Notes: a model not told the origin generated them from the letters alone. A stretch of 64,000 bases of DNA from Nitrososphaerota archaeon (GCA_041641305.1 JBEPYN010000002.1:352001-416000), one strand, 5' to 3'; shown: positions 610-54,727, counted from the first letter of the stretch. Numbers and translations are program-made.

Positions 610-627
610 ATTTAATCCCATGAGGCC
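610..627 (-). promoter_or_regulatory. GGCC-type promoter GGCCTCATGGGATTAAAT
   Basis: Matches the 18-bp motif recurring upstream of many genes. Confidence 0.65.
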
Positions 628-629
628 AG

Positions 630-1670
630 TTATGGAGCAAGGAGGATAACCCTCTTATGTGTAATGATGGGTTTAGCGAGTGGGGGTTTCGGCAACTCTT
701 TAACAGGCTTCGGTTTGATGTAGAAATCTTCGGTTCTTATCAACTCCTTCGGAGCATCGGCAGGAGGCTCATGAAAGCGGCTGTTAATGCGCCTATGAAG
801 GCGCACATCTATACCTCTATCCCTCAAAATTTTGCAGGCAATCAGGGTTGATAGGTTAGCGGACATGCCGAGCTGAGCTTGGTAATAGTAATAACCCTTA
901 ATTATGTAAACTTTCTCGGCGACGTCGCTGATTTTCTCAACAAGAGCGGATGGAAGGCTTTGGATATCAACTTCATAGAAGCCTGGGGCAATCTCCCGTA
1001 GTTTTCTCACCTCTTCGATAGACCGCCTATATTCCATCAATAAGCGTTCTCTCTGTTCTATCCTTCTCTTCTCTTTATCTGTTAGCGTTCTGTATATATG
1101 AGCCGTGGTGAAGAGGTCTTTCGGAATCCAAATCAAATCAATAAGGTCATAATTCCAACGCCTTGTGAAAACTACTTCAAAGTCCTCGTCTGGTATCTCG
1201 GGATAGGAAACGTCCATGTATCTACTCAGCCTCCTCATATACCGTTTACATTCGTTAAACATTTTCAAGAACTCCTGTTTGCTGACCGTAATAGGCTCGT
1301 TGGGTTTGGTCGGGAAAAAGGGCGGTAAAGCTTCGCCCAATTCAAGATATATGGTTTTGTTATGCATGGATGTTCCTGTGTTTAGAAAAACACGTCCATC
1401 ATACCCTACAAGCTCCGACTGAATTCGGTAAGTTTTGTTTAAACCAAATATTTCAAGCCTGCCATGATAAGGCAGGTAGGCACGCTCTAATTCCCCTCCA
1501 AATAAATAGGGCTTATAGCCAAGGGATAGAGCTTTTTTCAAATAACGCAGTCTCCTTAAATGAGGAGCGATGGAATGAACGAAATCTGGATATATTCTCG
1601 CCTTTTCGAGCCGCTCTCTAAATCTTCTCTCGAAGACCTGCAAAACCTCCTTAGGGTTAACCTCTTCCAT
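630..1670 (-). CDS. Hypothetical protein (346 aa)
   Basis: Long ORF with a GGCC-type element at about 1693-1711; no recognisable motif. Confidence 0.8.
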   Translation of the reverse strand: MEEVNPKEVLQVFERRFRERLEKARIYPDFVHSIAPHLRRLRYLKKALSLGYKPYLFGGELERAYLPYHGRLEIFGLNKTYRIQSELVGYDGRVFLNTGTSMHNKTIYLELGEALPPFFPTKPNEPITVSKQEFLKMFNECKRYMRRLSRYMDVSYPEIPDEDFEVVFTRRWNYDLIDLIWIPKDLFTTAHIYRTLTDKEKRRIEQRERLLMEYRRSIEEVRKLREIAPGFYEVDIQSLPSALVEKISDVAEKVYIIKGYYYYQAQLGMSANLSTLIACKILRDRGIDVRLHRRINSRFHEPPADAPKELIRTEDFYIKPKPVKELPKPPLAKPIITHKRVILLAP

Positions 1671-1752
1671 ACCCTAAAGAAAATAGTTGATTTTTATTAC
1701 CGCTAAAGGCCATATTCATAAAAAAAGGTGAAGGGTTTTAGGGGCTGGGTGT

Positions 1753-1974
1753 TTAGATATCCACCCATGCCCCCACAGTCTTGTCTCTGACATGGACGAT
1801 GGGGTCTCCAGCCGCTGGCTCGACTATTGCTATATCCTCGGGCTTCTCGGCAATCTTCAGAACCTTTTCCCTGATTGGTTTAGGCATGTTTCTGACCTTC
1901 TCTTTGACGCTTTTTGCTCCGCCCTTCTTTCGTCCCGACTTTCTCGCCTTCGTCTTTGTCTTTTTCTTAGTCAT
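1753..1974 (-). CDS. Small Lys-rich basic protein (probable start MTKKKTK at 1974)
   Basis: Basic N-terminus; GGCC-type promoter at 2000-2018 lies about 25 nt before this ATG; T-run after the stop. Confidence 0.65.
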   Translation of the reverse strand: MTKKKTKTKARKSGRKKGGAKSVKEKVRNMPKPIREKVLKIAEKPEDIAIVEPAAGDPIVHVRDKTVGAWVDI

Positions 1975-2024
1975 GGCAGGCGATAATATCTCTCTCAAGT
2001 AAATAACTCTCAGAGGCCCGCTGT

Positions 2025-2040
2025 TGTCAACAAGTTGACA
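2025..2040. repeat. 16-bp palindrome copy TGTCAACAAGTTGACA
   Basis: Direct reading; intergenic. Confidence 0.9.
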
Positions 2041-2052
2041 GCATTTAGGGCC

Positions 2053-3844: not shown

Positions 3845-3850
3845 GAAATA

Positions 3851-4066: not shown

Positions 4067-4583
4067 GTGATACACCACTTTCACCTCTCTTATAACATTT
4101 AGAGGCCATGTAGGAATTGAATGCTTCTTCAAAGTCCTCGAAATCGGGCAGTTTTCCAGTCTTCAGCCATTTCTGAAAGATGTGGCTGGCGAGCTGCTCC
4201 AATCTGGCGTCTGAGACCGAGTAGTGTTTGTTTCCTGTGTTGCTTGAAACCAAGGTGATGTGTTGGATGTCGTGTTGAGAAGGGTGAATGTAGAATTTTT
4301 CCCCATGTGTGCCGGCTTTTGAGGACCTGCTGTAGTCTGGTCTTAGGGGACGATAACATGTGAAACATACGACATAAACCGAAGTAATTCCTCCCATCCT
4401 TGTATGCCGCCAATCAAATATCAGAACGTTTTCAGGTTCGACTGGTTTTTCAATCATTTCCCACACCACCTCATACGCATTTCGTGTTTGGGGAGAAATA
4501 TAACCAGATGAGGCCATCATAGTTTCTGAAATAGCGAACTCATGTTTAAAATCTGGAGGCTTTGACGAAGTTACATAAGGCAT
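4053..4583 (-). CDS. Hypothetical protein
   Basis: 176-aa ORF heading a minus-strand run. Confidence 0.65.
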   Translation of the reverse strand: MPYVTSSKPPDFKHEFAISETMMASSGYISPQTRNAYEVVWEMIEKPVEPENVLIFDWRHTRMGGITSVYVVCFTCYRPLRPDYSRSSKAGTHGEKFYIHPSQHDIQHITLVSSNTGNKHYSVSDARLEQLASHIFQKWLKTGKLPDFEDFEEAFNSYMASKCYKRGESGVSHEKF

Positions 4584-4770: not shown

Positions 4771-5175
4771 ATGGTAGAAAATCACGGGATTTCCCGGGAG
4801 CTGCTGGTTCGCGGCGACCGTAGAGCCATGTCGATGTTCAGGGCCCGGCTCCGAAAATTGGCGAGTAAAGGGCTTTGGGAGGAGTGGGACAGGTTTCTCG
4901 ACAGCCTTGAGCCGGTGGCGAGGTATTGGCTGGCGAGCGAAACATGTGGCGAGTATACGGAGCTGCTTCACTTGGGTGAGGTGATTTTCTTTATCGAGGT
5001 TGGTGTAGATGGGGCGGTGAGTGTAACTGGTCTCAGGTGGGATACACGTCTTTCCAGAATTGGGGTGCAGTTGAAGCACTATCTATTAGAGCACTGCTTC
5101 AAGGAGATTAAGCGCCAAGCTACCTCCCAAACCAGTAACGTCCGTTTAAACCATGCTGCATCAGCAGGGCCGTGA
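4771..5175 (+). CDS. Hypothetical protein
   Basis: ORF with a GATAAAT box about 24 nt upstream. Confidence 0.6.
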   Translation: MVENHGISRELLVRGDRRAMSMFRARLRKLASKGLWEEWDRFLDSLEPVARYWLASETCGEYTELLHLGEVIFFIEVGVDGAVSVTGLRWDTRLSRIGVQLKHYLLEHCFKEIKRQATSQTSNVRLNHAASAGP

Positions 5176-5974
5176 AAAGCTTTCCAACACGCTGGTCGAA
5201 TGAATAGTCCACGCTCAGCTCCTCTCCCAGAGCATTTGCGAGATAAGTCATGTTCATTCCCCTGATGTGTAGGGTTTCTCCATAGACCATGTCAGGCCTG
5301 ACCCTTCCCAAAGCATCAAAAATCTGCATCAAGTCACCTTCCACGTCAGGTCTTAGCCTGCACGGCGGTAGAATAGGAGCGATGATTACACCTGTCCTGA
5401 GCCCCGCCTCTCGCGCCTGTCTGATTATGTCAAGCCTTCTCTGCGGCGTAGTAACTCGCGGCTCAATAGCCCTCGCCAGCTCCGTGCTGAACGTTGCCAC
5501 GGAGACCTGAACCCTTACCTGCTCCCTGTATTTCTCGAGTAAGTCAAGGTCTTCGAGGACGAGCGGCGACCTTGTCTGGATGCAGAACCTCACCCCGCAT
5601 CGCAAGCCGTGCTCAAGGATTTTCCTCGTCCATCCAGCAAGCTGAGGTAGATAGGGGTCATGTGTTGAACTGAGGAGAACCTCCTCGCCGCGCCACCTGC
5701 TCCATGGTGTTTGCTCGATAACCTCGTCTAAGTTGGTTGGTGTAGCAAAATAATATCCCCAGTCCTTATCGACCAGCCGCCCCGCTCTCGGAGAGGAGTA
5801 TAGCTTATGTATCGAGTCCACGTAGCAGAACCTACATCCAAAAGTGCACCCAATCGCATAGTTAGCGACCCAGCCGTCGGAAAGCCCCTTACCCACGCCC
5901 CCCTTCTCCTCAACCGTCAGCTTCGAGGGCTTGACCAGAGGCGGCTTAATCCTATACCTTCCAAACTCTATCAA
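5120..5974 (-). CDS. Radical SAM protein, spore photoproduct lyase (SplB/Rv2578c)-like
   Basis: GCTFGCRFCY (CxxxCxxC), SSTHDPY, QTRS, IEPR...P..RL motifs. Confidence 0.85.
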   Translation of the reverse strand: MIEFGRYRIKPPLVKPSKLTVEEKGGVGKGLSDGWVANYAIGCTFGCRFCYVDSIHKLYSSPRAGRLVDKDWGYYFATPTNLDEVIEQTPWSRWRGEEVLLSSTHDPYLPQLAGWTRKILEHGLRCGVRFCIQTRSPLVLEDLDLLEKYREQVRVQVSVATFSTELARAIEPRVTTPQRRLDIIRQAREAGLRTGVIIAPILPPCRLRPDVEGDLMQIFDALGRVRPDMVYGETLHIRGMNMTYLANALGEELSVDYSFDQRVGKLFTALLMQHGLNGRYWFGR

Positions 5975-5999: not shown

Positions 6000-6017
6000 A
6001 TTTAAACGGATAAGGCC
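6000..6017 (-). promoter_or_regulatory. GGCC-type promoter GGCCTTATCCGTTTAAAT
   Basis: 25 nt before the TTG start of the radical SAM gene. Confidence 0.7.
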
Positions 6018-6096: not shown

Positions 6097-6202
6097 TGGA
6101 CCGAACGGGACTTGAACCTTATCGGCCAGCTCAATTTCTTGGAGCTGACTCGCGACCTCCCGCAAGCCAAGCGGGCGCTCTTCCATGTTGAGCTACCGGC
6201 CC
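6097..6202 (-). tRNA. tRNA-Ala(GGC) with a 32-nt intron at position 51/52 (6119-6150)
   Basis: Cloverleaf folded by hand: acceptor GGGCCGG/TCGGTCC with G3:U70, D stem GCTC/GAGC, anticodon arm CCCGC-TTGGCTT-GCGGG, T arm GCG^GG-TTCAAGT-CCCGT; junctions form a relaxed bulge-helix-bulge; 74 nt after splicing; no encoded CCA. Confidence 0.9.
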
Positions 6203-6262: not shown

Positions 6263-6970
6263 CTACTGGCTGGCTATTGACCATAGGCGGTCAAACTCCT
6301 CCACGAATTGCTTAGCTACGTCTTCGGATAGTATCGCGACGAGGTTTTCGTCATTAGCCTCCTCAGCCGCTCCCGACCAGTTGTAGCTACCGGTTGCCAC
6401 GATTCTTTCGTCGATAACCATGAACTTGTGATGCATAAGCGCAGAGTTGCCGTCGAGCCTGATGTCTAAGCCCGCCTCCTTTAGGCGCTGGTATTCGGAG
6501 CCTCGTATCTCGGCTGACTCGGCTTCGAGCACCACCTTCACATCCACGCCCCTATTGTGAGCGGCTATCAAAGCGTTGGCGAGCCTATCGTTTGTGAATA
6601 CGTATACTGCTACGAGAATACGTCTCTGCGCCGCGTTGATGAGGGTTTCCAACATTGATTCGCAGACCATGGGCCTTGAGAAGCAGACCGCTACGCCTGA
6701 GTGGTTGTATAGCTGAGGTATTTCGGGGATGATTGAAGTGGTAACCGTGACTGTTCTCGTAGAAGTTAGTGTGGTGGGCTGTGTTGCTGTTGTCGTAGAT
6801 GTTACGGTGTAACTGGCTGTCGCGGTTAGCACGCGTGTGGAGACCGCGGTTGCCGTGGTTGTGAACGTGGTGGCAACCCTTTCCCTCGGGCTTAGGGTTA
6901 AGCCAGCGGCAAGTCCCGCGAATAACCCAATCAATAGAAGGACAACAGGGACCACAACGCTTCTATTCAT
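6263..6970 (-). CDS. Membrane-anchored phospholipase D-family nuclease (Nuc-like) with Thr-rich linker
   Basis: N-terminal hydrophobic helix, Thr-rich stalk, single HKD motif HHKFMVID...GSYNW...NDEN. Confidence 0.85.
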   Translation of the reverse strand: MNRSVVVPVVLLLIGLFAGLAAGLTLSPRERVATTFTTTATAVSTRVLTATASYTVTSTTTATQPTTLTSTRTVTVTTSIIPEIPQLYNHSGVAVCFSRPMVCESMLETLINAAQRRILVAVYVFTNDRLANALIAAHNRGVDVKVVLEAESAEIRGSEYQRLKEAGLDIRLDGNSALMHHKFMVIDERIVATGSYNWSGAAEEANDENLVAILSEDVAKQFVEEFDRLWSIASQ

Positions 6971-6973
6971 GTC

Positions 6974-7771
6974 TCAGACCCCCATGACGCATTCCATAAC
7001 TATCTTGAGAGGGTCTATCTGCTCGTAAGGTATCGGGACCACTACCGCGAAGCCGCTGTTATGAACGAATGTTTTCGGGTATGATGTCGCCTTTGGTATA
7101 AACTTCCCCTCATTAGCCTGTATCAACATGGTGCCTCCATCCCTTGAAGGCATCACAGCTCCTATGATGTGTTTGTCTGCGTGAGCCTCACGGATATAGG
7201 TGAGGTTGAGGGGTTTGGGTGAGAACACTACGTAGCCGAGGGGTGTTGGAAAGAGCTTGACGCCGTTTTTGGCGAATAGGAAGTCGTCAAGCAAGGCAAG
7301 AACGGATTCTCCGACACATCTCATGATATAATGGAGTGGATGCTCTGGAGAAAGCAACGTGATTGTCGAGAAGTACTTCAGCATCGCCCTCTCCACAAGA
7401 CCACGGTCTTCATCCATATTCAGAACCTTCTTAGCCACGTAGGCCCCAAACCTATCCCGCAGGTCAATATACCTAAAGTCCGTCGGTAGATTCTCGCTAT
7501 CTATTCCGAAGAAGTCTCTTAGCACGAGGATGAAGCTGCTTGGCAGGTCTTCGTCTTGGTGATGGTCGAAGAAAATTCTGCCGTCGTATCTCTTGCCTAC
7601 ATCGACGACTATCTCACCTTCCTCAGGCTCGCCGGTGAAGTCGGGGACTCTAATAACAACGGCGTCAGGATACTTGTGTAGCAGAAGGCTTACCGCCAAG
7701 AACTCGTCTGAGTGAGCCGGCCCAGAATGCGTGATAATCTTTTTGACGGCTAAAGGCTCCAGACTTTGCAA
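6974..7771 (-). CDS. MYG1-family metal-dependent hydrolase/exonuclease
   Basis: THSG.AH.DE, VDVG..YD, FDHHQ motifs. Confidence 0.8.
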   Translation of the reverse strand: MQSLEPLAVKKIITHSGPAHSDEFLAVSLLLHKYPDAVVIRVPDFTGEPEEGEIVVDVGKRYDGRIFFDHHQDEDLPSSFILVLRDFFGIDSENLPTDFRYIDLRDRFGAYVAKKVLNMDEDRGLVERAMLKYFSTITLLSPEHPLHYIMRCVGESVLALLDDFLFAKNGVKLFPTPLGYVVFSPKPLNLTYIREAHADKHIIGAVMPSRDGGTMLIQANEGKFIPKATSYPKTFVHNSGFAVVVPIPYEQIDPLKIVMECVMGV

Positions 7772-7968: not shown

Positions 7969-7993
7969 GGCTATACCTTCATGCATCATAGAT

Positions 7994-8668
7994 TTAACCG
8001 GATAAGGCCTTATCCAAAGCCTCTAACAGGTTCTCCAATTCTCCATGCATCTCCGCTCCATATTTCTCCATTTTGTGGCTAAGCTTGGCTGAAAGAGGCG
8101 TCAGGTGGACCGGCCTGCCGAGCCTAATCGCGGACCATGCGGTTGATTCTGAGTCGCCCCCCTCATCCGCCTCCACGACCACGACGATGTCAGAAATCAG
8201 GGCTATCGTCATGTTTCTGAGGATAAAGTCTCTGGGCTGCGTCCTGTGTCCATCAGGGAATTGGCTGACCGCGAGGTGCTCGCTCATGATGAGGCTTTGT
8301 AGGCCTTTGTTTTCTGGTGGATAGACACGGCTTAATGGTGTGCCGAGAACGGCGGCCGTCTCCCCGCCGCTGCGGACGGCTTCTAAATGAGCCGCGGTGT
8401 CAATCCCTTTCGCGAGGCCGCTGACAATAATCACCCGTTGTCTGCAGAGCCATTTGACTAGCTCCCGTGCATAGTTCAGACCTTCTTCGCTTGCGTTCCT
8501 TGTTCCCACGACGGCTACACGGGGGGTCTGAAGAGGGATACGCATTTTTCCGCAGACGTAAAGCCTGTTTGGGGCGAGTCTCCTCTCGACGCGGTTTAGC
8601 GGTCTTCCGAGGAGCTGCTCCACCGTGATGCTACGTGCCTGTCTGTAGGCTCTGGATTGCGTCGTCAT
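7994..8668 (-). CDS. dprA: DNA-processing protein DprA/Smf
   Basis: VAVVGTR, IVSGLAKGID.AAH, AVLGT, YP.EN, F..RN, VVVEA motifs. Confidence 0.9.
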   Translation of the reverse strand: MTTQSRAYRQARSITVEQLLGRPLNRVERRLAPNRLYVCGKMRIPLQTPRVAVVGTRNASEEGLNYARELVKWLCRQRVIIVSGLAKGIDTAAHLEAVRSGGETAAVLGTPLSRVYPPENKGLQSLIMSEHLAVSQFPDGHRTQPRDFILRNMTIALISDIVVVVEADEGGDSESTAWSAIRLGRPVHLTPLSAKLSHKMEKYGAEMHGELENLLEALDKALSG

Positions 8669-10220: not shown

Positions 10221-10541
10221 TCACGCCCCCGTGGTCTGCTGGCTTGCTTGTAGATGTCTGCGTCTTAGGAAGCGTTTTCCCCCGCTTTCGGTAACCTCGT
10301 AAACATACTCCCCAATCTTTACCCCGCCCTTGGCCGAGGCCTTTTCGACAAGGTCTGGAGGAGCTTGGTCTGCGAAGACCCATTCGCCGCGGCCGTCACG
10401 GTATTGTCTCCACGGCAGGTTGTCGAAGCCTGTCTCCCCCTCCTCTCTAAGAAGGTCCCTGAGCTGTTTCAATATATCCAGCTCTTTCTCGAGCTGTTTT
10501 ATTCTCTCGTCGAGGAAGGCGCGTAGTTTATCGCTGCTCAT
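10221..10541 (-). CDS. Hypothetical protein with N-terminal coiled coil
   Basis: Coupled to nrdJ; heptad pattern followed by an aromatic-rich small domain. Confidence 0.7.
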   Translation of the reverse strand: MSSDKLRAFLDERIKQLEKELDILKQLRDLLREEGETGFDNLPWRQYRDGRGEWVFADQAPPDLVEKASAKGGVKIGEYVYEVTESGGKRFLRRRHLQASQQTTGA

Positions 10542-12783
10542 GAGCCAGCACCTGCTCCTTCCCGAGGCCGAGGACCTCCAATGTCCTGTTTCTCACCTGT
10601 CTCCTCACCTTGACTGAGGGGGCGTGTAGGACTTGAACGCCTTTGGATGTGTCTCTGAACACGGTTATCCCTTTGACTCCTATTTTTTCAGCCGCGACGT
10701 ATGCGTTTAGGACGTCCTCAACCGTTGCCTCTGCCGGCATGTTGATTGTCTTGCTCACAGAGCTGTCAACCCACTTCTGTATCTCATACTGGGCCCTGAG
10801 ATGGTCCCACCAAGCAATTTCCCTAGCTGTGACGAAGACGTCCCGCATATCCTCAGGTATCTCGTCTATCCCTTGTACGGAGCCGCCGTTTTCGGAGACT
10901 TTTTTGAGCAGCTCCATGGAGTAAAGCCCACGCTCCTTCAACTGCCTCTCAAACTCTATGTCGACATAGTAGAACCGCCCCACTGTGACATGTTTTTCAT
11001 AGACAAGCGCGAACTGTGGCTCTAGCCCGGCCGATACATCGAATATCATGGATATGCTGCCTGTGGGGGCTACCGTGGTGACGTGGCTGTTTCTAAGCCC
11101 CACCCGCTTCACGCGTTCCGACACTTCTCTCCAGTCCATTGTCCACATCTCGGGGTGATAGAAGCCCTCTACGGCAAGCAGCCCCTGTGTGTAGAAGCTG
11201 GCGTCATACAATGGGAATCTGCCCTTCTCCTCCGCAAGGCTTGACGATGCCATGTAGGCGTGGTAGGAGATGAACTCCATCACCCTGCTCATGGTGCTGA
11301 AGCCTTCTTCGCTGTCATAGGGTATGCCGAGGGCGTAGAGCATGTCCGCTAACCCCATTATGCCTAGCCCAATCCTCCGGTGTCGCCGGTTCTCCTCTGT
11401 TAGGCGCGGGAACGGATGTCTGTTGACGTCTATCGCGTTGTCTAGGAATCTTACAGAGGTTTCAACGGATTCTCTCAGCTTTTCCCAGTCGATTTTTCTG
11501 GCTTCCCTGTCCACGTGCTCGTAAAGGTTGATGCTGCCTAGGTTACAGGACTCATATGGATAGAGCGGCTGCTCCCCGCATGGGTTGGTGCATACTATAT
11601 CGCCCAAAGCTTGTCGGAGAGGGTTTCTCCTGTTTATATGATGCTTGAACAATAGCCCCGGGTCGCCTGTCATCCACGCCTGTCTAGCTATCTCCTGTAA
11701 GAGTGTTCTGGCGTTCACCTCCCCCACCTTCATCCCTGTCCTTGGGTTTATCAGAGGATAGCTGGAGTTGGAGTGGTAGCTTCGCCAGAACTCCTCATCA
11801 GTCATGACGGATATGTTGAAGTTCTCGAACCCGCCGTTTTCCTTGCATGTTATGAACTTCATGACATCTGGGTGCCATGCCTCGAGTATGCCCATGTTGG
11901 CTGCTCTTCTTCTACCGCCTTGCTTGATAACATCGGCTACCTTATCTATCAGGCTCATGAATGAGACCGGTCCGGATGCGACACCACCGCTTGAAGATAC
12001 AACGTCACCTTCCGGTCTCAGCTTTGAATAGTTTATTCCAACTCCTCCGCCTGTCTTGAAAATCAACGCAGCCCCCTCAGCAGCCCTCATAATCGAGGAA
12101 ATATCATCCTCGACGTCGAGCACAAAGCATGCGCTGAGCTGGCCGAGCCTAGCTCCTGCGTTGAAGAGCGTCGGGCTGTTGGGTAGAAAGCGTTTCTCGA
12201 ACAAAAGGTTGGCGAACCTGTGGAAAGACTCCACCGCCTTTTCGGGAAGCGGCTTGCCCCTTATGTGGATGTATTGGTTTGTCACGAAGTTTTCTGGAAT
12301 ATTGTATGTTAGGGCTCCGCCCTTGTCTGCGACGGCTATGGCTGAAGCAACGCGGTACACCATTCCCTCGGGGGTTTCGATAATCCTGCCCTCCTCATTC
12401 CGTAGAAGATACCTCGAAGCAAGCAGCCTAACCGCGTTGACGGATAGCGCTTTCTTGGTCCATCTCTGAGGCTCCACCCCAAGTATGGATTTCTTCTCAG
12501 CTCTCTCCTGCTCCCTTCTGTGCCTGTAGGTTATGTAGGCTTTGGCAACGTCGTAGAGGCCATGCCTCATTAATGAAAGCTCGACAATATCTTGTATCCG
12601 CTCGACGTGAGGCTTTTCATCACCCTGTGTCTCCAATATCGAGACCACTTCAGCGGTCACTTTCTTGGCGGACACGGTGTCAACACGCCCAACCTCTCTC
12701 ATTGCCCCGAGTATGGCTTTCTCTATACGTGAAGGGTCGAAATCCTCAAGCCTTCCATCCCTCTTCACAACAGCCTTCAACAT
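10528..12783 (-). CDS. nrdJ: Class II (B12-dependent) ribonucleotide reductase with ATP cone
   Basis: VVKRDG ATP cone, PNSPTLFN, LSACFV, TNPCGEQ, CNLGSIN, VAPTGSIS, SVSKTIN motifs. Confidence 0.93.
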   Translation of the reverse strand: MLKAVVKRDGRLEDFDPSRIEKAILGAMREVGRVDTVSAKKVTAEVVSILETQGDEKPHVERIQDIVELSLMRHGLYDVAKAYITYRHRREQERAEKKSILGVEPQRWTKKALSVNAVRLLASRYLLRNEEGRIIETPEGMVYRVASAIAVADKGGALTYNIPENFVTNQYIHIRGKPLPEKAVESFHRFANLLFEKRFLPNSPTLFNAGARLGQLSACFVLDVEDDISSIMRAAEGAALIFKTGGGVGINYSKLRPEGDVVSSSGGVASGPVSFMSLIDKVADVIKQGGRRRAANMGILEAWHPDVMKFITCKENGGFENFNISVMTDEEFWRSYHSNSSYPLINPRTGMKVGEVNARTLLQEIARQAWMTGDPGLLFKHHINRRNPLRQALGDIVCTNPCGEQPLYPYESCNLGSINLYEHVDREARKIDWEKLRESVETSVRFLDNAIDVNRHPFPRLTEENRRHRRIGLGIMGLADMLYALGIPYDSEEGFSTMSRVMEFISYHAYMASSSLAEEKGRFPLYDASFYTQGLLAVEGFYHPEMWTMDWREVSERVKRVGLRNSHVTTVAPTGSISMIFDVSAGLEPQFALVYEKHVTVGRFYYVDIEFERQLKERGLYSMELLKKVSENGGSVQGIDEIPEDMRDVFVTAREIAWWDHLRAQYEIQKWVDSSVSKTINMPAEATVEDVLNAYVAAEKIGVKGITVFRDTSKGVQVLHAPSVKVRRQVRNRTLEVLGLGKEQVLAHEQR

Positions 12784-12785: not shown

Positions 12786-12980
12786 CTAACCTGCCTCCGC
12801 CTTGGATATAACTGGATGAGGCCTTGTGCTGGTTTCGAGCCGGTTCCTCTTCCTTCTCGGCTTCTTTCTCAACAGCGTGCCGCAGTCAGGGCATCTAATG
12901 GCCCTTGTCTTGAAGTATGTCCTGCATCTCGAGCAGAAGCGGTATCCAAGGGCATAGCAGCCGTATCCGCTTCTAATCAC
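12786..12980 (-). CDS. Small C4 zinc-finger protein, family copy 1
   Basis: GYRFCSRC...RCPDCG..LR.KPR. Confidence 0.75.
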   Translation of the reverse strand: MIRSGYGCYALGYRFCSRCRTYFKTRAIRCPDCGTLLRKKPRRKRNRLETSTRPHPVISKAEAG

Positions 12981-13369
12981 TGCGCCTCACCCACCTTGGG
13001 GATGAACAGCATTAGTTTCTGTTCTATTGAGCCTTTGACTGTTATCTCGAAAACCTCGCCGTATATGGGCGGGCATAGCACCCGGATAAATGTGCCCCTC
13101 TGTGGAGGTACGAAAACCGCGTGGACCTGTTCATGTTCTCCTGTGATATTTTTGCAGATGGCCTCCCGCACCTCTACGAACCTGTCTGAGTAGAGCCACA
13201 GCCATAGGTAGGAGCCCATAAGTCTAATATCTGCGAGACTAGCCTCTAAGCGGGGCGGCGCCGATTCTTCTGGGAACATGTCCAAAACAGGTCCCCTAGA
13301 GCTTGTAACCGCTAAAACCGCCGCCCCTATGCCGAGTATAACCATGAGTAAAACGGCGCGCCTCATCAA
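12977..13369 (-). CDS. Membrane-anchored or secreted hypothetical protein
   Basis: N-terminal hydrophobic helix; promoter at 13391-13408. Confidence 0.7.
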   Translation of the reverse strand: MMRRAVLLMVILGIGAAVLAVTSSRGPVLDMFPEESAPPRLEASLADIRLMGSYLWLWLYSDRFVEVREAICKNITGEHEQVHAVFVPPQRGTFIRVLCPPIYGEVFEITVKGSIEQKLMLFIPKVGEAQ

Positions 13370-13390: not shown

Positions 13391-13408
13391 ATTTATTCCG
13401 ATGAGGCC
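13391..13408 (-). promoter_or_regulatory. GGCC-type promoter GGCCTCATCGGAATAAAT (heads the run containing nrdJ and dprA)
   Basis: 24 nt before the ATG at 13366. Confidence 0.7.
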
Positions 13409-13492
13409 ATTTAGCTAATGGACCATCCAGCCACAACCGCTACCCACGACCTCATGAAAACCATGAGCTAATCGAAGAATTTAATTGATAAA

Positions 13493-13510
13493 GGCCCTAT
13501 CCGCTTAAAT
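13493..13510 (+). promoter_or_regulatory. GGCC-type promoter GGCCCTATCCGCTTAAAT
   Basis: 24 nt before the ATG at 13535. Confidence 0.7.
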
Positions 13511-13534: not shown

Positions 13535-13744
13535 ATGGAAGTGAGGAAAACAGCTAGGAACAGCTATGCAATGGGTTACAAGTTTTGTAGAAGATGCCAC
13601 CTATATGTGAAAACGGAGTCAAGGATTTGCCCAATCTGCCACAATCATGTGCGAAGCGGCCCGAGGAGCAGAAGGTTGAAGCAAAAAATTCGTCTAGATA
13701 AAATGGAGAATGTAGGCTCAACATCCCTCAATCCATCAGCGTAA
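13535..13744 (+). CDS. Small C4 zinc-finger protein, family copy 2
   Basis: GYKFCRRC...ICPICH..VR.GPR. Confidence 0.75.
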   Translation: MEVRKTARNSYAMGYKFCRRCHLYVKTESRICPICHNHVRSGPRSRRLKQKIRLDKMENVGSTSLNPSA

Positions 13745-14020: not shown

Positions 14021-14386
14021 TTGGTTATGAATCCGGTGTTCTTTGAAGACATTTCCGTGGTCAAGTATTGCTCCAACTGTGGAGTGCACATGTATTTCGC
14101 GGGTGATGAATGTCCGGGTTGCTCTGAACTTCTCATCGTCGAGTTTCATACTCGTAGGAAAAACCGCCTCCCAGTGTATCTGGTGAGGAAAGGGGGAAGG
14201 TATAGACATGGTTTCAAGTATTGCTGCTCCTGCAGGCTCCACATATGGCTGGAAGGAGGTTTACAAAGGTGCCCGTTCTGTAAAAGACTTGTTCGTAACG
14301 GTCCACGGGGCAAACACAATGGAGATGGGAAACCGAGAGTAGATATATCCACTTTGGAAGAGGAAGAATACGGCTCTATGTTTTAA
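14021..14386 (+). CDS. Double C4 zinc-finger protein, family copy 3
   Basis: KYCSNC..CPGC and GFKYCCSC..RCPFC..VR.GPR. Confidence 0.75.
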   Translation: MVMNPVFFEDISVVKYCSNCGVHMYFAGDECPGCSELLIVEFHTRRKNRLPVYLVRKGGRYRHGFKYCCSCRLHIWLEGGLQRCPFCKRLVRNGPRGKHNGDGKPRVDISTLEEEEYGSMF

Positions 14387-14801
14387 CCTCTATGAGATTA
14401 TCCTCTACATGAAGGCCTTCATCAATTAGTTTTTCGCTCAGTTCTTTGGCTCTCCGCGCTATTCTAATCATCCTCTCCCTAGGAGATTCAAGAGCTATGA
14501 GCCTGAAGCTAGCCGGCTGCTTAGCCACCTCATCGATGCTCTCGATAGCTGCTGCCAAGAGCGCGGCCTTGGTAAGCGGCATGGTTATAGGCAGCTTGAG
14601 GAGCCAATTGTCGCCGCTTCTCTCCAGTAGACATCTGCCTGCTTCACCTGTTGCTTGGAGGCGGCTCAGGGATATGTTCTCTAGGATGTCTGTGTTCCCG
14701 TAGAGGGCTCCGAATATCTGCTTATCAGAGACTTCTCCGTCGACCTTGATGGAGAAAACCAACGTGGACTCATGTTTGTAGCTGTTCTGAATGCTCTGCA
14801 T
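14376..14801 (-). CDS. Stand-alone homologue of the archaeal DnaG N-terminal domain (no TOPRIM)
   Basis: DGEV...IFGALYGNT, LQATGEAGR, ALLAAAIESIDEV and RAKEL resemble the recalled archaeal DnaG N-terminus (GVV.KPDVVGAIFGQTE, LQ.TGRIGR, A.LAA.LE.IDRVGP, RAK.I). Confidence 0.7.
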   Translation of the reverse strand: MQSIQNSYKHESTLVFSIKVDGEVSDKQIFGALYGNTDILENISLSRLQATGEAGRCLLERSGDNWLLKLPITMPLTKAALLAAAIESIDEVAKQPASFRLIALESPRERMIRIARRAKELSEKLIDEGLHVEDNLIEVKT

Positions 14802-14970: not shown

Positions 14971-14995
14971 GGTTTTAGGGATTATAATGATGGAT

Positions 14996-17338: not shown

Positions 17339-17394
17339 CTGAGTGGAAGAAGGCCCTAGACTCTTAAATATTTTGAGTGACCTAGTGACTTCGG

Positions 17395-17682
17395 ATGAGT
17401 TATAGAAAAGGCCGGAGATTCGAGTATGAGGTTAGGGATTATTTTGAGAGGAGAGGATGGCTTGTTATCAGGGCTGCTAGAAGCAGGCCCGTTGACTTGG
17501 TGTGTATAAAGGATGGGAAAGTTATGCTGGTTGAATGCAAGTACGCTGGAGGCAGGGTTCAAAAAGATGAGCGGAAAGCTCTTGAGAAAATGGGTGAAAA
17601 ACATGGAGTGGATGTGGCTGTTGTGCGGAGAAAGAGGAGAGGCGTGATAGAGATTGAGCCGCTCTATTCCGGAGGCGTGTAG
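17395..17682 (+). CDS. hjc: Holliday junction resolvase, Hjc family
   Basis: YRKGRRFE, VIRAARS..VDL, LVECK (PD-(D/E)xK); promoter GGCCCTAGACTCTTAAAT at 17352-17369. Confidence 0.85.
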   Translation: MSYRKGRRFEYEVRDYFERRGWLVIRAARSRPVDLVCIKDGKVMLVECKYAGGRVQKDERKALEKMGEKHGVDVAVVRRKRRGVIEIEPLYSGGV

Positions 17683-18098: not shown

Positions 18099-18416
18099 TT
18101 ATATTTCCAGCGCCTCTCCGCCTTCTTCGGAAGCCGGGTTGAGTCTCTCTATTGCGTCTAGAACCTCTTCAAGCCTTTTATCTTCTAGTAGCCTTCTGAA
18201 CCTCTCCAGCTCATCACGTCTCCTCAGCATGAGGCCTCGTCTCTTAGTAGGCGCCCCGTCTTCTCCGACAGGGTTGACCTCGACCAGTAGTGAAGCAGAC
18301 CTGCCACGCGAGGCCGGAGCCTTCACCACGAATATTCCCGGAGAGCCTTTGACTGGGACACGCTGCCAGTCCTTACCTGTCTCAAGAAACCTCTCAAGCG
18401 CGTCCGTCATAGCCAT
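18099..18416 (-). CDS. Conserved-looking archaeal hypothetical protein
   Basis: FL..GKDW, G.FVVK.P, EVNP...G.P.KRRGL pattern recalled from archaeal hypotheticals; function unknown. Confidence 0.65.
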   Translation of the reverse strand: MAMTDALERFLETGKDWQRVPVKGSPGIFVVKAPASRGRSASLLVEVNPVGEDGAPTKRRGLMLRRRDELERFRRLLEDKRLEEVLDAIERLNPASEEGGEALEI

Positions 18417-22953: not shown

Positions 22954-23142
22954 GAACATCGCATTCTCAATACTGGCTATTGTGGAGTGTAAGGACCTCG
23001 CTCACATTACCGTGAATTAATGACATGGATTAAAGAGTATGAGGCCATCCTCCGACCTCTGCTAAACATGTCTCTGAGTTGCAGCGTTACAGAAGTGGTA
23101 AACGTTTTACTACAACCTTCTACACATAGTATGTGAAGAGCT

Positions 23143-27112: not shown

Positions 27113-27191
27113 ACCAATTTAGTAATCTGAGTTGAGGGCTTTAAACTCTCGAGGCCTAGAAAACCTTATTGAAGGAGGCATGTAGAATGCT

Positions 27192-30504: not shown

Positions 30505-30633
30505 TAAGCGGCCCATGAGATTATTTAAGGGGATAAAAATGCCTGCGCTGGACATAGGGTAGAAGGATTAGACGCAACTGATAGATAGGGCTTTATCCCG
30601 TTAAATCCATCGCAATTATCTGGTTGTTTTGGG

Positions 30634-42195: not shown

Positions 42196-42879
42196 CTACG
42201 CCACCAAGTAGATGTGTGACTCGTAGGCGGCTGCCATCGCGGCCACCAGCACCGCGTAGAGAAACAGCCTATGAGAGCCTCGGTAGGCCTGCGCCAGCCT
42301 TCCTAGTCCATATCCATCGCCGCATAGAGCTTTGGCGGCCACGTATGTCGGAAACGATAGGGACAGGGCCTCGAGCGCCAGCAGCGGAGCCAGTATCGGG
42401 TATTCGGCGCCTACGCCTCCCATGGTGAACCCGTTCACAGCCATGGGTGCGAGCGCTGATACGAGGATGAATTTCTCATGCCTCCTACCTATTGGCTTGG
42501 GGCGGCCTCTTCCCTCCATGACCATGGCGAGCGGCATGACCGCGTGTATCGCCGGAACCAGCGAGATAGGCCTCATGTTGCTGAGCAGTATGGCGGCGAC
42601 CATTGAGGGGGGCGAGGGCTTCGCCGGCTTCTCATATGATGGGTTGATTGCGGCCTCTATTGTCTCGGCAGCCGCCTCGACCTGCCTCGGCACGTCTGGG
42701 ACGATGGATACCCCTGGGGCGACTGTTGTTGACCTCGACAGCGACTGGACGAAGGCTGGAAAGGCTGTGGCGAAGCCTGCTCCGGAAAAGCTGGTGAGGA
42801 GGAGGCTGAAAACGGCTCCAGATGCTATGGAGCCGAGTGTGAGGAATGCTGTTAATATCAGCGCCGTATACAGAGGCAT
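42196..42879 (-). CDS. Membrane protein, SpoIIM-like
   Basis: Multi-TM with conserved-looking N, NG, E and terminal AA.YES. Confidence 0.55.
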   Translation of the reverse strand: MPLYTALILTAFLTLGSIASGAVFSLLLTSFSGAGFATAFPAFVQSLSRSTTVAPGVSIVPDVPRQVEAAAETIEAAINPSYEKPAKPSPPSMVAAILLSNMRPISLVPAIHAVMPLAMVMEGRGRPKPIGRRHEKFILVSALAPMAVNGFTMGGVGAEYPILAPLLALEALSLSFPTYVAAKALCGDGYGLGRLAQAYRGSHRLFLYAVLVAAMAAAYESHIYLVA

Positions 42880-42942
42880 TCACCTCCGTGAATGCCTTAA
42901 CCGCCTAAGGTGTATTTATTGAGATAAGGCGTGGCCGTGTTC

Positions 42943-46714: not shown

Positions 46715-47491
46715 TCACCCCCCTCGTACATCGAGTTCTACGTGGAGGGTCAGCGATACCGTGACAGGCCTGTTCTCTTCGGGATAGGAATACCAGTACC
46801 AGAATATGAAGTCGTCACGATATGTCGGGCCGCCAGCCCTGAAAGTGTACCCTGTGTAGTCGCTCCAGCCGTCAACATATCTAACGAGTATTGTATTGCG
46901 GTATTCGCCAGTCCGTATCCACCAAATAAAAGTTGTTCCAGCGGGGGTCATCCAACCGTTGAAGAGGAAGGAGTTCGTGGTTGAGTTCTCGCGGACAACC
47001 TGAACCTTTATCCAAGAGTTTTGGCTGACGGTCACAATCTGGTTCCTCGGGTCGGGTCTGAGGAAGAGAAGGTAGCATTGTATGTTCTTGTCCAATGTAG
47101 CGTTGTAGTCTATGATGTTGTGGCCGAGCTTGAGCTGGTAGACGCCGCAGAGCTGGAATCTCCCTCTCCTCGCAAAATCGTGGTAGGTTTCGACTGGTAC
47201 TGGGAACGGTTCGACGGCCATCACGTTCCAGAACACCAGCCCCGAGACCACCACCGCGAGTCCCGCGATGACGTATTTTCTCTCAGCCTTTCCTATAAAA
47301 ACTAAGGCTGCCAAGACGAGTCCTGGAAGGTTCCAGAATATGTAGATGTTGAACCATCCGGGGAGTTCGGGGAAGATGTGGTTAAGCGGGGCGAGGCGTA
47401 CAGTTCCTATAACCACGGCGATGGCGAACATGGCAAAGTACGCCAGCAACGCAAGCCCTACCTTTCTCAGGTTTTTCCTAACTCGGGACAT
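46715..47491 (-). CDS. Membrane protein with extracellular beta domain
   Basis: Three N-terminal TMs; promoter GGCCTCAAATGATTAAAT at 47518-47535. Confidence 0.75.
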   Translation of the reverse strand: MSRVRKNLRKVGLALLAYFAMFAIAVVIGTVRLAPLNHIFPELPGWFNIYIFWNLPGLVLAALVFIGKAERKYVIAGLAVVVSGLVFWNVMAVEPFPVPVETYHDFARRGRFQLCGVYQLKLGHNIIDYNATLDKNIQCYLLFLRPDPRNQIVTVSQNSWIKVQVVRENSTTNSFLFNGWMTPAGTTFIWWIRTGEYRNTILVRYVDGWSDYTGYTFRAGGPTYRDDFIFWYWYSYPEENRPVTVSLTLHVELDVRGG

Positions 47492-47537
47492 GGTCAGTCA
47501 CTAGGTTTTTTCCAAACATTTAATCATTTGAGGCCAG

Positions 47538-52283: not shown

Positions 52284-52284
52284 T

Positions 52285-53253
52285 CTAGCTCACCACCACC
52301 GAAGTTACAGTCACGGTGGCCGTGGTTGTTGTAGTGACCGTGGGTCTGATGCTTACGCTGGTTGATGTCAATATGTTCCACCAATAGGACATAGTTGTTG
52401 TGGTGTACGTTGTGGTAGAGTATGTTGGGAGTGTGGCTGTCGCAGTGTATGTCGTGGTGACTGTTGTTACGGAGGGTAGTGTTGTCGTTACCTTGGTGAC
52501 GTACCACATGGTCCATGGAGTCGCGAGGGTGTCAAGCGAAGTGGTTGTCGTCGAACCTATCTGCTTGGGTATCACAACCGTTGTAAGGTATGTTGCCGTC
52601 GCTAGGTTAGCTTGGTAGGGCGTATAGTAATAGTAGTAGATATAGGTTCTTGTTGATGTCGTGCCGTAGTAGCAGGATAGGCATAGGGTCAGTTTCTGGG
52701 TTATTGTTGTGGTCGAGTATGTCGTCTGTAGTGTCGGAGCCGTCCAAGTAACGTAGTACGGCGTGTATGTGGTGTAGTATACTGTGGTGCTCCTTGTCAA
52801 GACGTATCTGGTCGTGACGCAGCAGCTCGTCGTGTATGTCGCCGTGGCGACTTGGAGGCCCGGCTTCTCCTTGAGAACCAGCTTGAGGCTCCCCGTGCCC
52901 TCCAGCTCGGCTGCCAGTGCTTGGGCGTCGCCGACTAGGACCGATGCCTTCTGGCCGGGCTGTATGGTTATCGGCGGGTTGAGCACCACTTCCCCCGTCT
53001 CCGTGAAGAGCTTGGTCAAGGTAACCGGCGCCGCCCCGTCGTTGGCTATTATCGCTCTACCATCTATCAGAGCCACTAGGCTCAGCTTGGCTCCGGCCAG
53101 CTTCTCGGCTTCGCCAACCTCCTCAACAGCAGCTCTCTGGACGAAGACCGTGTTGGGCAGGTGCATGGATAACGTGAAGGCAACTATCATAACGGTGGCG
53201 GCTAACGCGACTATCGAGGCAGCCGACTGAGAGATTCCTCTCCTGCTCTTCAC
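52285..53253 (-). CDS. Pilin-like protein with very Thr/Tyr-rich C-terminus
   Basis: RRG/ISQ class III signal. Confidence 0.8.
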   Translation of the reverse strand: MKSRRGISQSAASIVALAATVMIVAFTLSMHLPNTVFVQRAAVEEVGEAEKLAGAKLSLVALIDGRAIIANDGAAPVTLTKLFTETGEVVLNPPITIQPGQKASVLVGDAQALAAELEGTGSLKLVLKEKPGLQVATATYTTSCCVTTRYVLTRSTTVYYTTYTPYYVTWTAPTLQTTYSTTTITQKLTLCLSCYYGTTSTRTYIYYYYYTPYQANLATATYLTTVVIPKQIGSTTTTSLDTLATPWTMWYVTKVTTTLPSVTTVTTTYTATATLPTYSTTTYTTTTMSYWWNILTSTSVSIRPTVTTTTTATVTVTSVVVS

Positions 53254-53693
53254 CTCATGCTCACCTCCACGCTGCCTATGATGAATGTTGGAATGCTTCT
53301 ATGGGTCAGGGCTCTGGCCTCAACTATGTAGACCCCTCCCGAGGAAACGCCAGAGACTATGAAGGTGTCGCTCCACGATGTTGAAGGCTTGAGCGCCTCG
53401 TCAACTCCTCTAACGAATAGTTCGTTGGAGCCGCTGAGGAGCCTTATGCTCTGAAGGGTCACGGGCTCTTTACCGATGTTGTAGACCGTGACGGTCAGCA
53501 GCCCCCCGTCTCCGAAGGGCTCTAGATGAGCTGAGACGAGGAGTCCCGTTGATGTGGCGGCTGGCGCCGTCCTGAAGACGCCGGCCGCAAAAGCAACCGC
53601 CATAGCCACTATGGCGGCAAATGTGAGAACAACAGCCGCGATAACCTCGCTTAAACCATATCTCGGAAAAAAAGAAGAGGAGTTTTTCCTCAT
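53250..53693 (-). CDS. Archaeal type IV pilin
   Basis: RYG/LSEVIAAVVL signal, V.NIG motif. Confidence 0.8.
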   Translation of the reverse strand: MRKNSSSFFPRYGLSEVIAAVVLTFAAIVAMAVAFAAGVFRTAPAATSTGLLVSAHLEPFGDGGLLTVTVYNIGKEPVTLQSIRLLSGSNELFVRGVDEALKPSTSWSDTFIVSGVSSGGVYIVEARALTHRSIPTFIIGSVEVSMR

Positions 53694-53694
53694 C

Positions 53695-54162
53695 CTACAC
53701 CACCGGCACGGATGTCGAGTGCCTGATGGTTCCGCTGGAGCCTGTTCCGGAGGCTTCGATGACTATGAGGTCTCCCCGACCTGCGCCTAACCCTGTCACA
53801 CATGCCGATGCCGACGCTTCAGCCCCCGGCTGGAGGCTTCCTATCGAGCCCACGGAGGCGGTGTTAGTCCCCCATCTTGCGGTTACGGTTATCCCCGTGA
53901 TGGTTGTCGAGCCATCATTCTTCACCTTAGCGTTCACATAAATGCATGTGTCCTGTAAGTAGGACTGCGCCTCTATCACCCTGATGCTCTCAGCCCTAGC
54001 AAACACTCCAATCCTGGCCATGGTCAGGACGCCTACTATGAGTGCGAGAGCGGTGACAATCACGACGAGTATTATGGCTGCGACGGGCTGGCTGAGTCCT
54101 TTCCGAGACCTCCTGCTAGACCTTCCATAAAAAATATGGGAGGATGTTTTGATGAGGCTCAT
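53695..54162 (-). CDS. Archaeal type IV pilin
   Basis: RKG/LSQPVAAIIL signal, VKNDG and L.PG motifs. Confidence 0.85.
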   Translation of the reverse strand: MSLIKTSSHIFYGRSSRRSRKGLSQPVAAIILVVIVTALALIVGVLTMARIGVFARAESIRVIEAQSYLQDTCIYVNAKVKNDGSTTITGITVTARWGTNTASVGSIGSLQPGAEASASACVTGLGAGRGDLIVIEASGTGSSGTIRHSTSVPVV

Positions 54163-54172
54163 TCCCTCACCT

Positions 54173-54631
54173 CTAGATGTGGGCTACCGCCGACTTCTTG
54201 TCGACGACTTGGATGCCTCCTGGGCCTGTGCAGGTGACGATGGCTATGTAGATGTTTCCGCTGTTGAAGCCTGTTACGGCGTTTTCCGTGTAGCTGCCTG
54301 TCTGCCCTGGGTTGAGTGATGTTGGTCCAGCCGGTGTCGATAGGGAGGCTCCTGTCCCGTCCTGCACGTCGACCGTACAGCCGTTGAGGACGCTGCCTCC
54401 GCTGTTCCGGACGTCAACGGTTACGAAGCCGTTTCCGTTGACCGGGTCAACCAGTATGTCGACGCGCTCGATGGTCACCTTGGCCGCCGTCCCCCATCCG
54501 AAGAGGAAGCCGCCTGCCATCGACATGGCTACGATGGTTAGGGCGACTCCTGCTACGACGAGGATGAGGGCGAGGATTGGTGCGCTGAGTCCTTTTCTGG
54601 CGTTTTGTTTGATGCGTTTTTCCGTGTTCAT
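54173..54631 (-). CDS. Archaeal type IV pilin (candidate major pilin, first in operon)
   Basis: RKG/LSAPILALIL signal, VRNSG and LNPG motifs. Confidence 0.85.
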   Translation of the reverse strand: MNTEKRIKQNARKGLSAPILALILVVAGVALTIVAMSMAGGFLFGWGTAAKVTIERVDILVDPVNGNGFVTVDVRNSGGSVLNGCTVDVQDGTGASLSTPAGPTSLNPGQTGSYTENAVTGFNSGNIYIAIVTCTGPGGIQVVDKKSAVAHI

Positions 54632-54727
54632 GGCGATAATCTCCGCTATACGGGTGCATATATTCGGATAACGGCTCGCATGCCTGCGTTATCCGCATAA
54701 ATATTTCAGAACAGCACCTGACGCGGC

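Follow-up and report, generated by a model that had tools for sequence, protein, structure and literature searches.

A 24-bp block around an ordinary TATA box defines a regulon-specific core-promoter class in an accessory island of Candidatus Caldarchaeum

How archaeal RNA polymerase is directed to particular gene sets is, to our knowledge, poorly understood, and we know of very few regulon-wide promoter codes. Multiple TFB and TBP paralogues choose promoters in haloarchaea, as sigma factors do in bacteria. The BRE is bound by the helix-turn-helix (HTH) of TFB's second cyclin repeat, and in TFIIB/TFB-TBP-DNA structures the cores of this family touch DNA on both flanks of the TATA box. The archaeal BRE consensus is purine- and A-rich; counting from the TATA box, strong versions carry A at -3 and either A or G at -6 (PMC5817253). 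Activator-dependent promoters with an imperfect BRE include that of pf1089 in Pyrococcus furiosus (activated by PF1088) and those with an ARA box or an ArnR box (PMC5817253). The closest analogue of the promoters described here is the Sulfolobales DNA-damage promoter element, A(N)TTTC. In Sulfolobus UV-inducible promoters, a fixed, non-palindromic element lies at -44 to -39 beside a weak BRE (PMC5817253). The Sulfolobales element is bound by Orc1-2 (PMC6061795) and works with TFB3.

The locus analysed here is a 64,000-nt stretch of a Candidatus Caldarchaeum genome (the window; coordinates are window positions unless prefixed C2) within an accessory island of ~88 kb (about C2:347-436 kb). A first-pass annotation had proposed an element-specific promoter class, GGCCYHA-N5-WTAAAT, with a non-canonical BRE. 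The window has nine copies where 0.01 would be expected, a number that none of 100 shuffles reached. All 12 copies in the whole 1.66 Mb genome lie in C2:347,877-399,535 (52 kb). The motif is thus not equally common at promoters outside the island, where there are 0 strict copies, and a site heads 18 of the 56 island transcription units (~1/3) versus 5 of 922 outside (0.5%); the proposed specificity to the element is borne out. In a weight-matrix scan of the genome, all 20 matches of at least 18 bits fell inside the island (5.2% of the genome), although only the eight lying outside the training set are independent, because the matrix was built from island sites. Since the block is found only inside the ~88 kb island, the island has its own transcription signal. 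A scan of viral contigs for the extended motif gave 0 matches.

The consensus is a 24-base block, GGCCTYATCCGN-TTAAAT-CCATSA (alternatively A-n-GGCCTYATCCGn-TTAAAT-cCATsn), which stands at the head of at least 20 island transcription units, or some two dozen genes and about 25 promoters. The spacing within it is rigid: the genome has 17 matches to GGCC-N8-WTAAAT, of which 14 fall in the island, whereas GGCC-N7-WTAAAT and GGCC-N9-WTAAAT each occur three times and never there, leaving N8 as the only form. GGCC sits 8-11 (or 9-12) nt upstream of the TATA box, past the canonical 6-7 nt BRE, while TYATCCGN fills the 8 nt before TTAAAT, in the BRE position. The block continues 3' of the TATA box as CCATSA and so flanks it on both sides. 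The downstream extension was absent from the first-pass annotation.

As a host baseline we used 833 non-island upstream regions. Relative to the start codon, WTAWAT peaks there at -34 to -28, an interval in which TTAAAT ranks among the most enriched hexamers. The TTAAAT part of the block is therefore the host's ordinary TATA box at its ordinary leaderless distance, in keeping with the promoter-like nature claimed for the sites. The island-specific parts are GGCCTYATCC, in place of the host's A-rich BRE, and CCATSA downstream of TATA. In the host, the fourth base 5' of WTAWAT is A in 58% of cases, whereas the island block has C there; across 20 island blocks, C is present at -3 in 13 and at -4 in 13, while A at -6 from the TATA box is retained in 18. 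The block has no purine/A-rich BRE, and the description of this region as non-canonical stands, GGCC..ATCC replacing the A-rich host sequence. From its sequence and position, the block may act as a BRE read by a dedicated factor. Measured from the last T of TAAAT to the start codon of an ORF of at least 40 codons, the distance is 21-28 nt at most sites. Three good sites have no ORF at the usual distance: the strict motif GGCCTCATGGGATTAAAT at 610-627(-), right behind the stop of ORF 630-1670, where the distance to the next ORF (340-573) is an atypical 36 or 45 nt; 13496(-), with 42 nt; and 23046(-), with no less than 58 nt.

The nine strict 18-mers, that one included, all lie at the coordinates and on the strands given previously. 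The copy at 6000-6017(-) lies 25 nt before the TTG start of a radical-SAM gene (5120-5974). The top-scoring site (7992-8009(-), 31.6 bits) falls within a perfect palindrome, GGATAAGGCCTTATCC, 23 nt before a 56-aa ORF that is followed by MYG1 (6974-7771) and PLD-nuclease (6263-6970) genes. At 13391-13408(-) the motif precedes by 21 or 24 nt a 130-aa ORF (12977-13369), after which comes a 64-aa Zn-ribbon gene. The neighbouring divergent pair (13479-13510) shares a central GGCC between a strict arm, 13493-13510(+), heading a 69-aa Zn-ribbon gene (13535-13744), and a variant arm, 13479-13496(-). The most widely conserved instance, 14994-15011(-), is 23 nt before a 55-aa membrane ORF and a 141-aa paralogue of the DnaG N-terminal domain (14376-14801); those at 17352-17369(+) and 47518-47535(-) stand 25 nt before an Hjc-like nuclease gene (17395-17682) and 26 nt before a 258-aa ORF (46715-47491), respectively. 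Both arms of 29051-29090 had been listed. One, 29055-29072(-), is strict and heads a 69-aa ORF (28822-29031); its partner across the common central GGCC of the pair 29055-29086, 29069-29086(+), has ATATAT as its TATA box and is therefore a variant (22.6 bits), heading a 140-aa ORF.

Good sites beyond those first listed are GGCCTCATCTGGTTATAT at 4498-4515(-) (22.3 bits), at the head of an ORF of 134-138 aa ending at 4053; GGCCTCATCCAGTTATAT at 12806-12823(-) (22.0 bits), 22 nt before the ATG of an extra ribonucleotide reductase (RNR) gene (10528-12783); GGCCTCATACTCTTTAAT at 23029-23046(-) (22.7 bits), downstream of the short TFB gene considered below; and the arm ending at 13496(-) (18.5 bits). 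Outside the window, four more lie just to its left and one at window position 80687. The variants proposed earlier proved uneven. GGCTTTATCCCGTTAAAT at 30589-30606(+), given as near 30600, is good (23.4 bits) and lies 27 nt before an 82-aa membrane ORF (30634-30882). Moderate scores were obtained for the divergent pair at 54658-54702, which keeps TTATCCG and lacks GGCC (54675(-), 14.1 bits; 54685(+), 16.7 bits), and for CGCCTTATCTCAATAAAT at 42914-42931(-) (15.6 bits), heading a 227-aa ORF (42196-42879). This ORF is the nearest gene on the upstream side of that for the pilus ATPase, and its site is preceded by a palindrome, CTGTCAACATGTTGACAG. Weak are GGCCTCGAGAGTTTAAAG at 27139-27156(-) (12.5 bits), which lies 26 nt upstream of the NurA-HerA operon (26171-27112, 24693-26177), 3313(-) (11.9 bits), 1711(-) (10.8 bits), 30480(-) (10.5 bits) and the one near 2010; that near 6235 is not convincing.

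Orthologous promoters in at least four further Caldarchaeum species retain the block, which also heads transcription units of homologous smaller islands in other members of the genus. Three genomes (G002, G003 and G004) have 3-6 sites per 11-22 kb homologous contig, and G007 has three in a 48 kb stretch; G002 and G003 retain the block at their orthologous MYG1 promoters. Eleven hot-spring metagenome contigs carry it, one with seven sites in 11 kb; the RNR-orthologue promoter keeps it on contig L080, and the divergent pair at 29055-29086 is conserved in L024. At the promoter of the DnaG paralogue in five species, whose proteins are 39-49% identical, the block is 81% identical versus 28% for the upstream flank. 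Sequences flanking the copies are unrelated, and the block holds at 81% where adjoining DNA is randomised, which suggests that the block itself is under selection at genes with nothing else in common. The island module is present in one form in 5 of 12 genus genomes and in another form in G009, which has no strict motif and only two GGCC-N8-TTAAA[TG] sites; there the Hjc-like promoter retains a GGCC-N8-TTAAAT form, and the NurA-HerA promoter keeps the form of its weak variant. Six genus genomes lack the module, and none of them yielded the motif.

Among the genes headed by the block are extra replication and repair genes (RNR, helicases, Hjc-like, MYG1/PLD and the DnaG N-terminal paralogue), with weaker variants at pilus-region and HerA/NurA promoters. 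Besides the extra RNR, the island carries PolB-like, ParB-N, KaiC/RadA-like and VirB4/HerA-like genes and a second, island-only palindrome in iteron-like arrays. It has the accessory distribution and the replication/partition genes of a mobile element. Signs of integration, such as an integrase or att repeats, were not seen: a search with PF00589 gave no tyrosine recombinase match anywhere in the genome, and the island boundaries have no direct repeat >16 nt and no att-like repeats. Recent integration was rejected on these two grounds.

Like the Sulfolobales element, the block is short, conserved between species and in fixed register just upstream of a TATA/BRE region whose BRE lacks the strong bases. 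If transcription starts at the start codon, it would occupy about -42 to -39, a fixed position beside a weak BRE. As here, the genes that go with the Sulfolobales element include those of a type IV pilus operon, a TFB paralogue that is truncated, and genes for DNA transactions. There are also differences. The sequences are unrelated (A(N)TTTC versus GGCCTYATCC); the GGCC core is palindromic whereas the Sulfolobales element is not; the block covers the BRE and extends downstream of TATA, unlike that element; and its members are in one island, whereas those of S. acidocaldarius are scattered (214 genes). Orc1-2 binds the Sulfolobales element, whereas the Caldarchaeum island has no Orc1/Cdc6 gene, the two in the genome (C2:65 kb and C2:660 kb) both being outside it. 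The TFB paralogue here is truncated the opposite way to TFB3: its Zn ribbon is gone and its DNA-binding core retained. PF1088, the ARA box and the ArnR box offer a further likeness, a sequence-specific site by a weak BRE that is proposed to aid TFB recruitment; those cases are looser and concern single operons or small regulons, in contrast to ~25 promoters with a 24-bp block at invariant spacing.

The block is a real regulon-specific core-promoter class, and we consider it probable that it works as a regulon-specific composite core promoter, an ordinary TTAAAT TATA box set in a conserved 24-bp block. Transcription would begin at or beside the start codon (leaderless). With the host's A-rich BRE displaced, general TFB would probably be recruited poorly, and for that reason the promoters may require a sequence-specific protein with GGCCTYATCC, at about -42 to -33, as its binding site. 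This predicted protein would sit in fixed register with TBP on the TATA box, and the whole island would be switched on together; we infer activation rather than repression.

The opposite possibility is that the block is the operator of an island-encoded repressor lying over the BRE and blocking TFB, so that an integrated plasmid- or virus-like element stays silent until induced. A site covering the BRE has the position known for archaeal repressors (PMC5817253, introduction). The resemblance of the island to an accessory replicon, with its RNR, PolB-like, ParB-N, KaiC/RadA-like and VirB4/HerA-like genes and palindrome arrays, would suit such an element, as would one perfect 16-bp palindrome site and two divergent pairs symmetric around GGCC. 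However, most sites keep a single half-site with random upstream flanks, the island lacks the PF00589 match and att-like boundary repeats, and a repressor would not need a TATA register exact to one base at ~25 promoters and across species. We regard this reading as unlikely. A dimeric operator was rejected: among the unidirectional sites just one forms a complete palindrome, and the upstream flanks of the rest are random. GGCC as a restriction-modification target was dropped because GGCC is not avoided (observed/expected 0.89).

A broader proposal, which we hold to be quite unlikely, is that of a self-contained, replicon-like island with a private two-sided core promoter read by an island-encoded initiation-factor-like protein, possibly a Zn-ribbon-less TFB core with a partner. 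Such a core is encoded at 23222-23836(-). The 204-aa product has two cyclin folds (PF00382 at 6e-13) and a C-terminal HTH; its model has ten helices (pLDDT ~67-95 as 10-residue block means, residues 1-170) and aligns best in the PDB with 1D3U chain B (190 columns, E 2e-6). It starts at the first cyclin repeat, is ~105 residues shorter than the host TFB, and has no N-terminal Zn ribbon, B-reader or B-linker. The recognition helix also differs, reading STVAVCRKSK where the canonical one reads TEVTVRNRFK. A search of genome contigs for loci related to this short TFB found none. A predicted complex of TBP with the short TFB scored 0.00, which weighs neither for nor against.

On the narrower reading that this protein is itself the promoter-selectivity factor, the block would be an alternative BRE on both TATA sides. 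The location of the gene inside the island, the altered helix on a TFB core, the rigid spacing, and the flanking of TATA on both sides, where TFB-family cores contact DNA, all argue for it. As in haloarchaea and bacteria, a general-initiation-factor paralogue is encoded beside a distinct promoter class. Against this, co-occurrence is unsupportive here: G002, G003, G004 and G007 have the block at several promoters and only the two full-length TFB genes, whereas G009 has the short TFB (80% identity, near-identical helix) and 0 strict motifs. The short TFB thus fails as a factor that tracks the motif, and it is not required for motif maintenance. Its own promoter is outside the block class, and GGCC lies beyond the usual 6-7 bp BRE. 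Unlike the haloarchaeal and sigma cases, the paralogue has no RNAP-recruiting domain, and without a Zn ribbon and B-reader, whose roles in RNAP recruitment have been described (PMC13502027), it could not recruit RNAP alone; because of this lack it could instead be a promoter-specific placeholder or inhibitor. We judge the short-TFB reading distinctly unlikely. Highly improbable is a reading with no dedicated factor, in which a general one such as the second full-length TFB uses the block as a strong or alternative core promoter and the copies are alike through common descent or promoter copying within the island: all genomes of the genus encode two full-length TFBs whose recognition helices differ (TEVTVRNRFK and SVLTLRKAIA), and the island has paralogous gene sets (e.g. 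four Zn-ribbon genes) with which promoters could therefore have been copied, but the six island-less genomes have both TFBs and no motif, and the flanks of the copies are unrelated while the block is held at 81%.

Other candidates yielded no reader. A 147-aa wHTH gene to the left of the window, itself headed by the motif, is found only in G000; the small Zn-ribbon family is widespread, with a housekeeping member in most genomes; the 141-aa protein is the DnaG N-terminal domain paralogue and not an obvious DNA-binding regulator; and a conserved 105-aa protein gave a low-confidence model (pLDDT 63) with non-significant PUR/PC4-like matches.

For the composite core promoter that we favour, sequence alone delimits ~25 co-marked promoters with exact geometry, a host baseline, cross-species conservation and few candidate readers. 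On this basis promoter selectivity can be tested directly in the uncultivated Aigarchaeota/Caldarchaeales, and the sites mark out a large island, probably switched as one unit, in which replication, repair and pilus genes are duplicated. An island-encoded, initiation-factor-like reader, if true, would be an archaeal counterpart of element-specific sigma factors. Sampling two raw-read RNA runs at 3% yielded 0 reads. Two metatranscriptome assemblies hold fragments of some island genes, on contigs that carry no 5'-end or strand information. One metatranscriptome contig extends 30 nt beyond the predicted RNR start.

Pattern searching of the window returned nine exact matches to GGCCYHA-N5-WTAAAT, against 0.01 expected, and no shuffle reached nine; the nine lie at coordinates listed by the first-pass annotation. 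The whole source genome (1.66 Mb in four contigs, 52% G+C) carries 12 copies, every one within C2:347,877-399,535, where C2 is the contig holding the window; this stretch belongs to an accessory region of ~88 kb (the island). The spacing of the motif is rigid: of 17 genome copies of GGCC-N8-WTAAAT, the island has 14, whereas it has none of the three copies that each of the N7 and N9 forms has in the genome. At a cut-off of 18 bits, a weight matrix trained on the 12 strict sites gave 20 hits, which all fall within C2:347-433 kb (5.2% of the genome). Since eight of the 20 lie outside the training set, those eight are independent. Among genes of at least 80 aa, with starts set by ORF logic only, about a third of the unit heads in the island have a site, compared with 0.5% elsewhere. 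The host-wide comparison thus bears out the earlier proposal that the motif is element-specific. Below 18 bits there are a few plausible members outside the island, e.g. C1:530535 and C1:136856 on a second contig. Near-identical 26-mers, TAGGCCTCATCYGTTTTTATGCCTGW, are found at C1:530535 (+) and C2:417890 (-), each heading a short hydrophobic ORF; the regulon may include these ORFs as pilin-like members, the C1 one lying outside the island.

To obtain a host baseline, long ORFs were called genome-wide and 833 non-island upstream regions were analysed. These have an AT-rich peak 24-36 nt upstream of the start codon, with WTAWAT hexamers at -34 to -28 and TTAAAT among the most enriched, a placement that reads as the signature of leaderless transcription. 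The bases 5' of generic host TATA boxes are A-rich (58% A at four bases upstream). The island promoters use the same TATA box and, at most sites, the start codon is 21-28 nt away, equal to the host distance, so that the leaderless-type placement noted in the first-pass annotation holds. Its claim of a non-canonical BRE region was also upheld: in place of the host A-rich stretch, the island promoters have GGCCTYATCCGN. The four bases 3' of the TATA box are constrained too; the consensus of the 20 sites is A-n-GGCCT-t-ATCCG-n-TTAAAT-c-CAT, and the fourth base after TAAAT is T in 18 of them. Because both flanks of the TATA box are constrained, the 18-mer is the core of a 24-bp block. A palindromic GGCC is the common centre of two divergent promoter pairs (13479-13510 and 29055-29086), and site 8009 is inside a perfect 16-bp palindrome. 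At most sites the TATA-proximal half alone is conserved.

Strict GGCCTCATCC-type copies were found in four other species of Caldarchaeum (G002, G003, G004 and G007) among 40 related genomes scanned, and these head orthologues of island genes. The homologous contigs of G002, G003 and G004 have 3-6 sites per 11-22 kb, and G007 has three in one 48 kb stretch. At the promoter of a gene for a 141-aa protein, compared across five species, the 24-bp block averages 81% identity versus 28% for the 30 nt upstream; the proteins themselves share only 39-49%. An extended pattern matched one more genome record, a Caldarchaeum MAG contig with matches positioned as in contig C41 of G003 (probably that contig), and eleven contigs from hot-spring metagenomes; on one of these, seven sites fall within 11 kb beside RNR and radical-SAM orthologues. 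The viral contigs scanned with this pattern gave no matches. It follows that selection acts on the block, which is characteristic of Caldarchaeum islands of this type. Four metagenome contigs (L074, L075, L076 and L081) share an identical block, GGCCTTATCCCATTAAATCCATCG. None of them has a start codon within the 34 nt shown 3' of it, and the transcript there may be a non-coding RNA or a leadered mRNA.

Judged by Pfam scans and paralogue counts, the island is a collection of second copies of information-processing genes. It has a PolB-like gene, an RNR (one of three in the genome), XPB-like and SWIM-SNF2-like helicases, HerA-NurA, and genes for an Hjc-like nuclease, MYG1, a PLD-nuclease and DprA. 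The 141-aa protein (14376-14801 (-)) is paralogous to the N-terminal domain of DnaG, being 36% identical to that domain of the genome's own Toprim-containing DnaG-like protein (C3:83088-84236); its true orthologues are confined to motif-bearing genomes. Also present are ParB-N, KaiC/RadA-like and VirB4/HerA-like ATPases, a type IV pilus operon with a tubulin-like gene, and glycosyltransferases. Four small Cys4 Zn-ribbon paralogues (12786-12980 (-), 13535-13744 (+), 14021-14386 (+) and 27192-27398 (-)) share a basic tail and the pattern YCxxC...RCPxCG..R..PRKK; most related genomes have one conserved copy and some have large expansions (19-22 matches). The best-conserved island protein, at 58-67% identity across species, is basic and 105 aa long (18099-18416 (-)); it matched no Pfam family, and its low-confidence model gave non-significant matches to PUR/PC4-like folds. 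A 259-aa gene had no Pfam match, and the island has neither a PF00589 integrase match nor an att-like boundary repeat. A mid-island tRNA (6097-6202 (-); Rfam call, 31.7 bits) was missed by ARAGORN, an intron being the probable cause.

The best-supported reading is that the block is a regulon-specific core promoter. TBP would bind the ordinary TATA box and, given the non-canonical BRE, recruitment of the general TFB would depend on a protein recognizing GGCCTYATCC in exact register; the same putative protein may perhaps recognize the CCAT element too, and the island genes would be co-activated. That the register is exact to one base at ~25 promoters and across species favours a stereospecific contact between this protein and the TBP/TFB complex over a simple roadblock. 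Repression is still a strong competing explanation, since the BRE is covered by the site.

A candidate for the recognizing protein is a short TFB paralogue (23222-23836 (-); PF00382). It consists of the two cyclin repeats alone, its N-terminus coinciding exactly with the start of the first; both the Zn ribbon and the B-reader are missing, the recognition helix is altered and the C-tail is disordered. Its ten-helix model best matched PDB 1D3U chain B, which is the TFB core of P. woesei bound to BRE+TATA DNA. Lacking the Zn ribbon, it could not recruit RNAP alone (PMC13502027). Two full-length TFB genes are present in all members of the genus; the product of the second (C2:490821-491636) is 271 aa long and combines a Zn ribbon with a short linker and a different recognition helix, SVLTLRKAIA. 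The short TFB is a third, limited to the source genome, its close relatives and G009 (a single contig of 1,680,938 bp). Its distribution is at odds with that of the motif: G002, G003, G004 and G007 keep the block and the short TFB was not found there (at 86-95% completeness, a copy could have been missed), and G009 has the short TFB yet only GGCC-N8-TTAAA[TG] at two promoters. Other candidate readers were checked and none was decisive.

Among documented systems, the Sulfolobales DNA-damage network comes closest. Its ups-pilus, tfb3 and other promoters have A(N)TTTC at a fixed position (-44 to -39) next to a weak BRE (PMC5817253), and Orc1-2 binds this element (PMC6061795). As in that network, the island genes include a pilus, a truncated TFB and repair genes. 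However, the motif differs, the island promoters are clustered and the island has no Orc1/Cdc6 gene. By analogy, the block would work like the Sulfolobales system without being a member of it.

A second cis element, the palindrome CTGTCAACWWGTTGACAG, is island-restricted like the GGCC block, with all 17 copies (0-1 mismatch) in C2:354,025-435,435. In the window it occurs at 2025, 4692, 30487, 31117, 42943, 55159, 58087-58308 (five copies) and 62518, and beyond it at C2:429127-429246 (three copies), 432731 and 435435. The arrays of five and three copies have a period of ~59 bp and resemble iterons or a centromere. Some of the 17 copies are 16-21 nt 5' of GGCC-type TATA boxes. In relatives (G009 and metagenome contig L024), the arrays accompany the short-TFB/HerA/NurA module, not the GGCC block.

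Immediately right of the window is a gene for a Type II/IIG-like N6-methylase (C2:419308-421626). GATC is strongly avoided in the whole genome (observed/expected 0.27), and CTAG (0.49) and GTAC (0.46) less so. The SSU rRNA gene spans 3.1 kb, ~1.6 kb beyond the 1478-position model.
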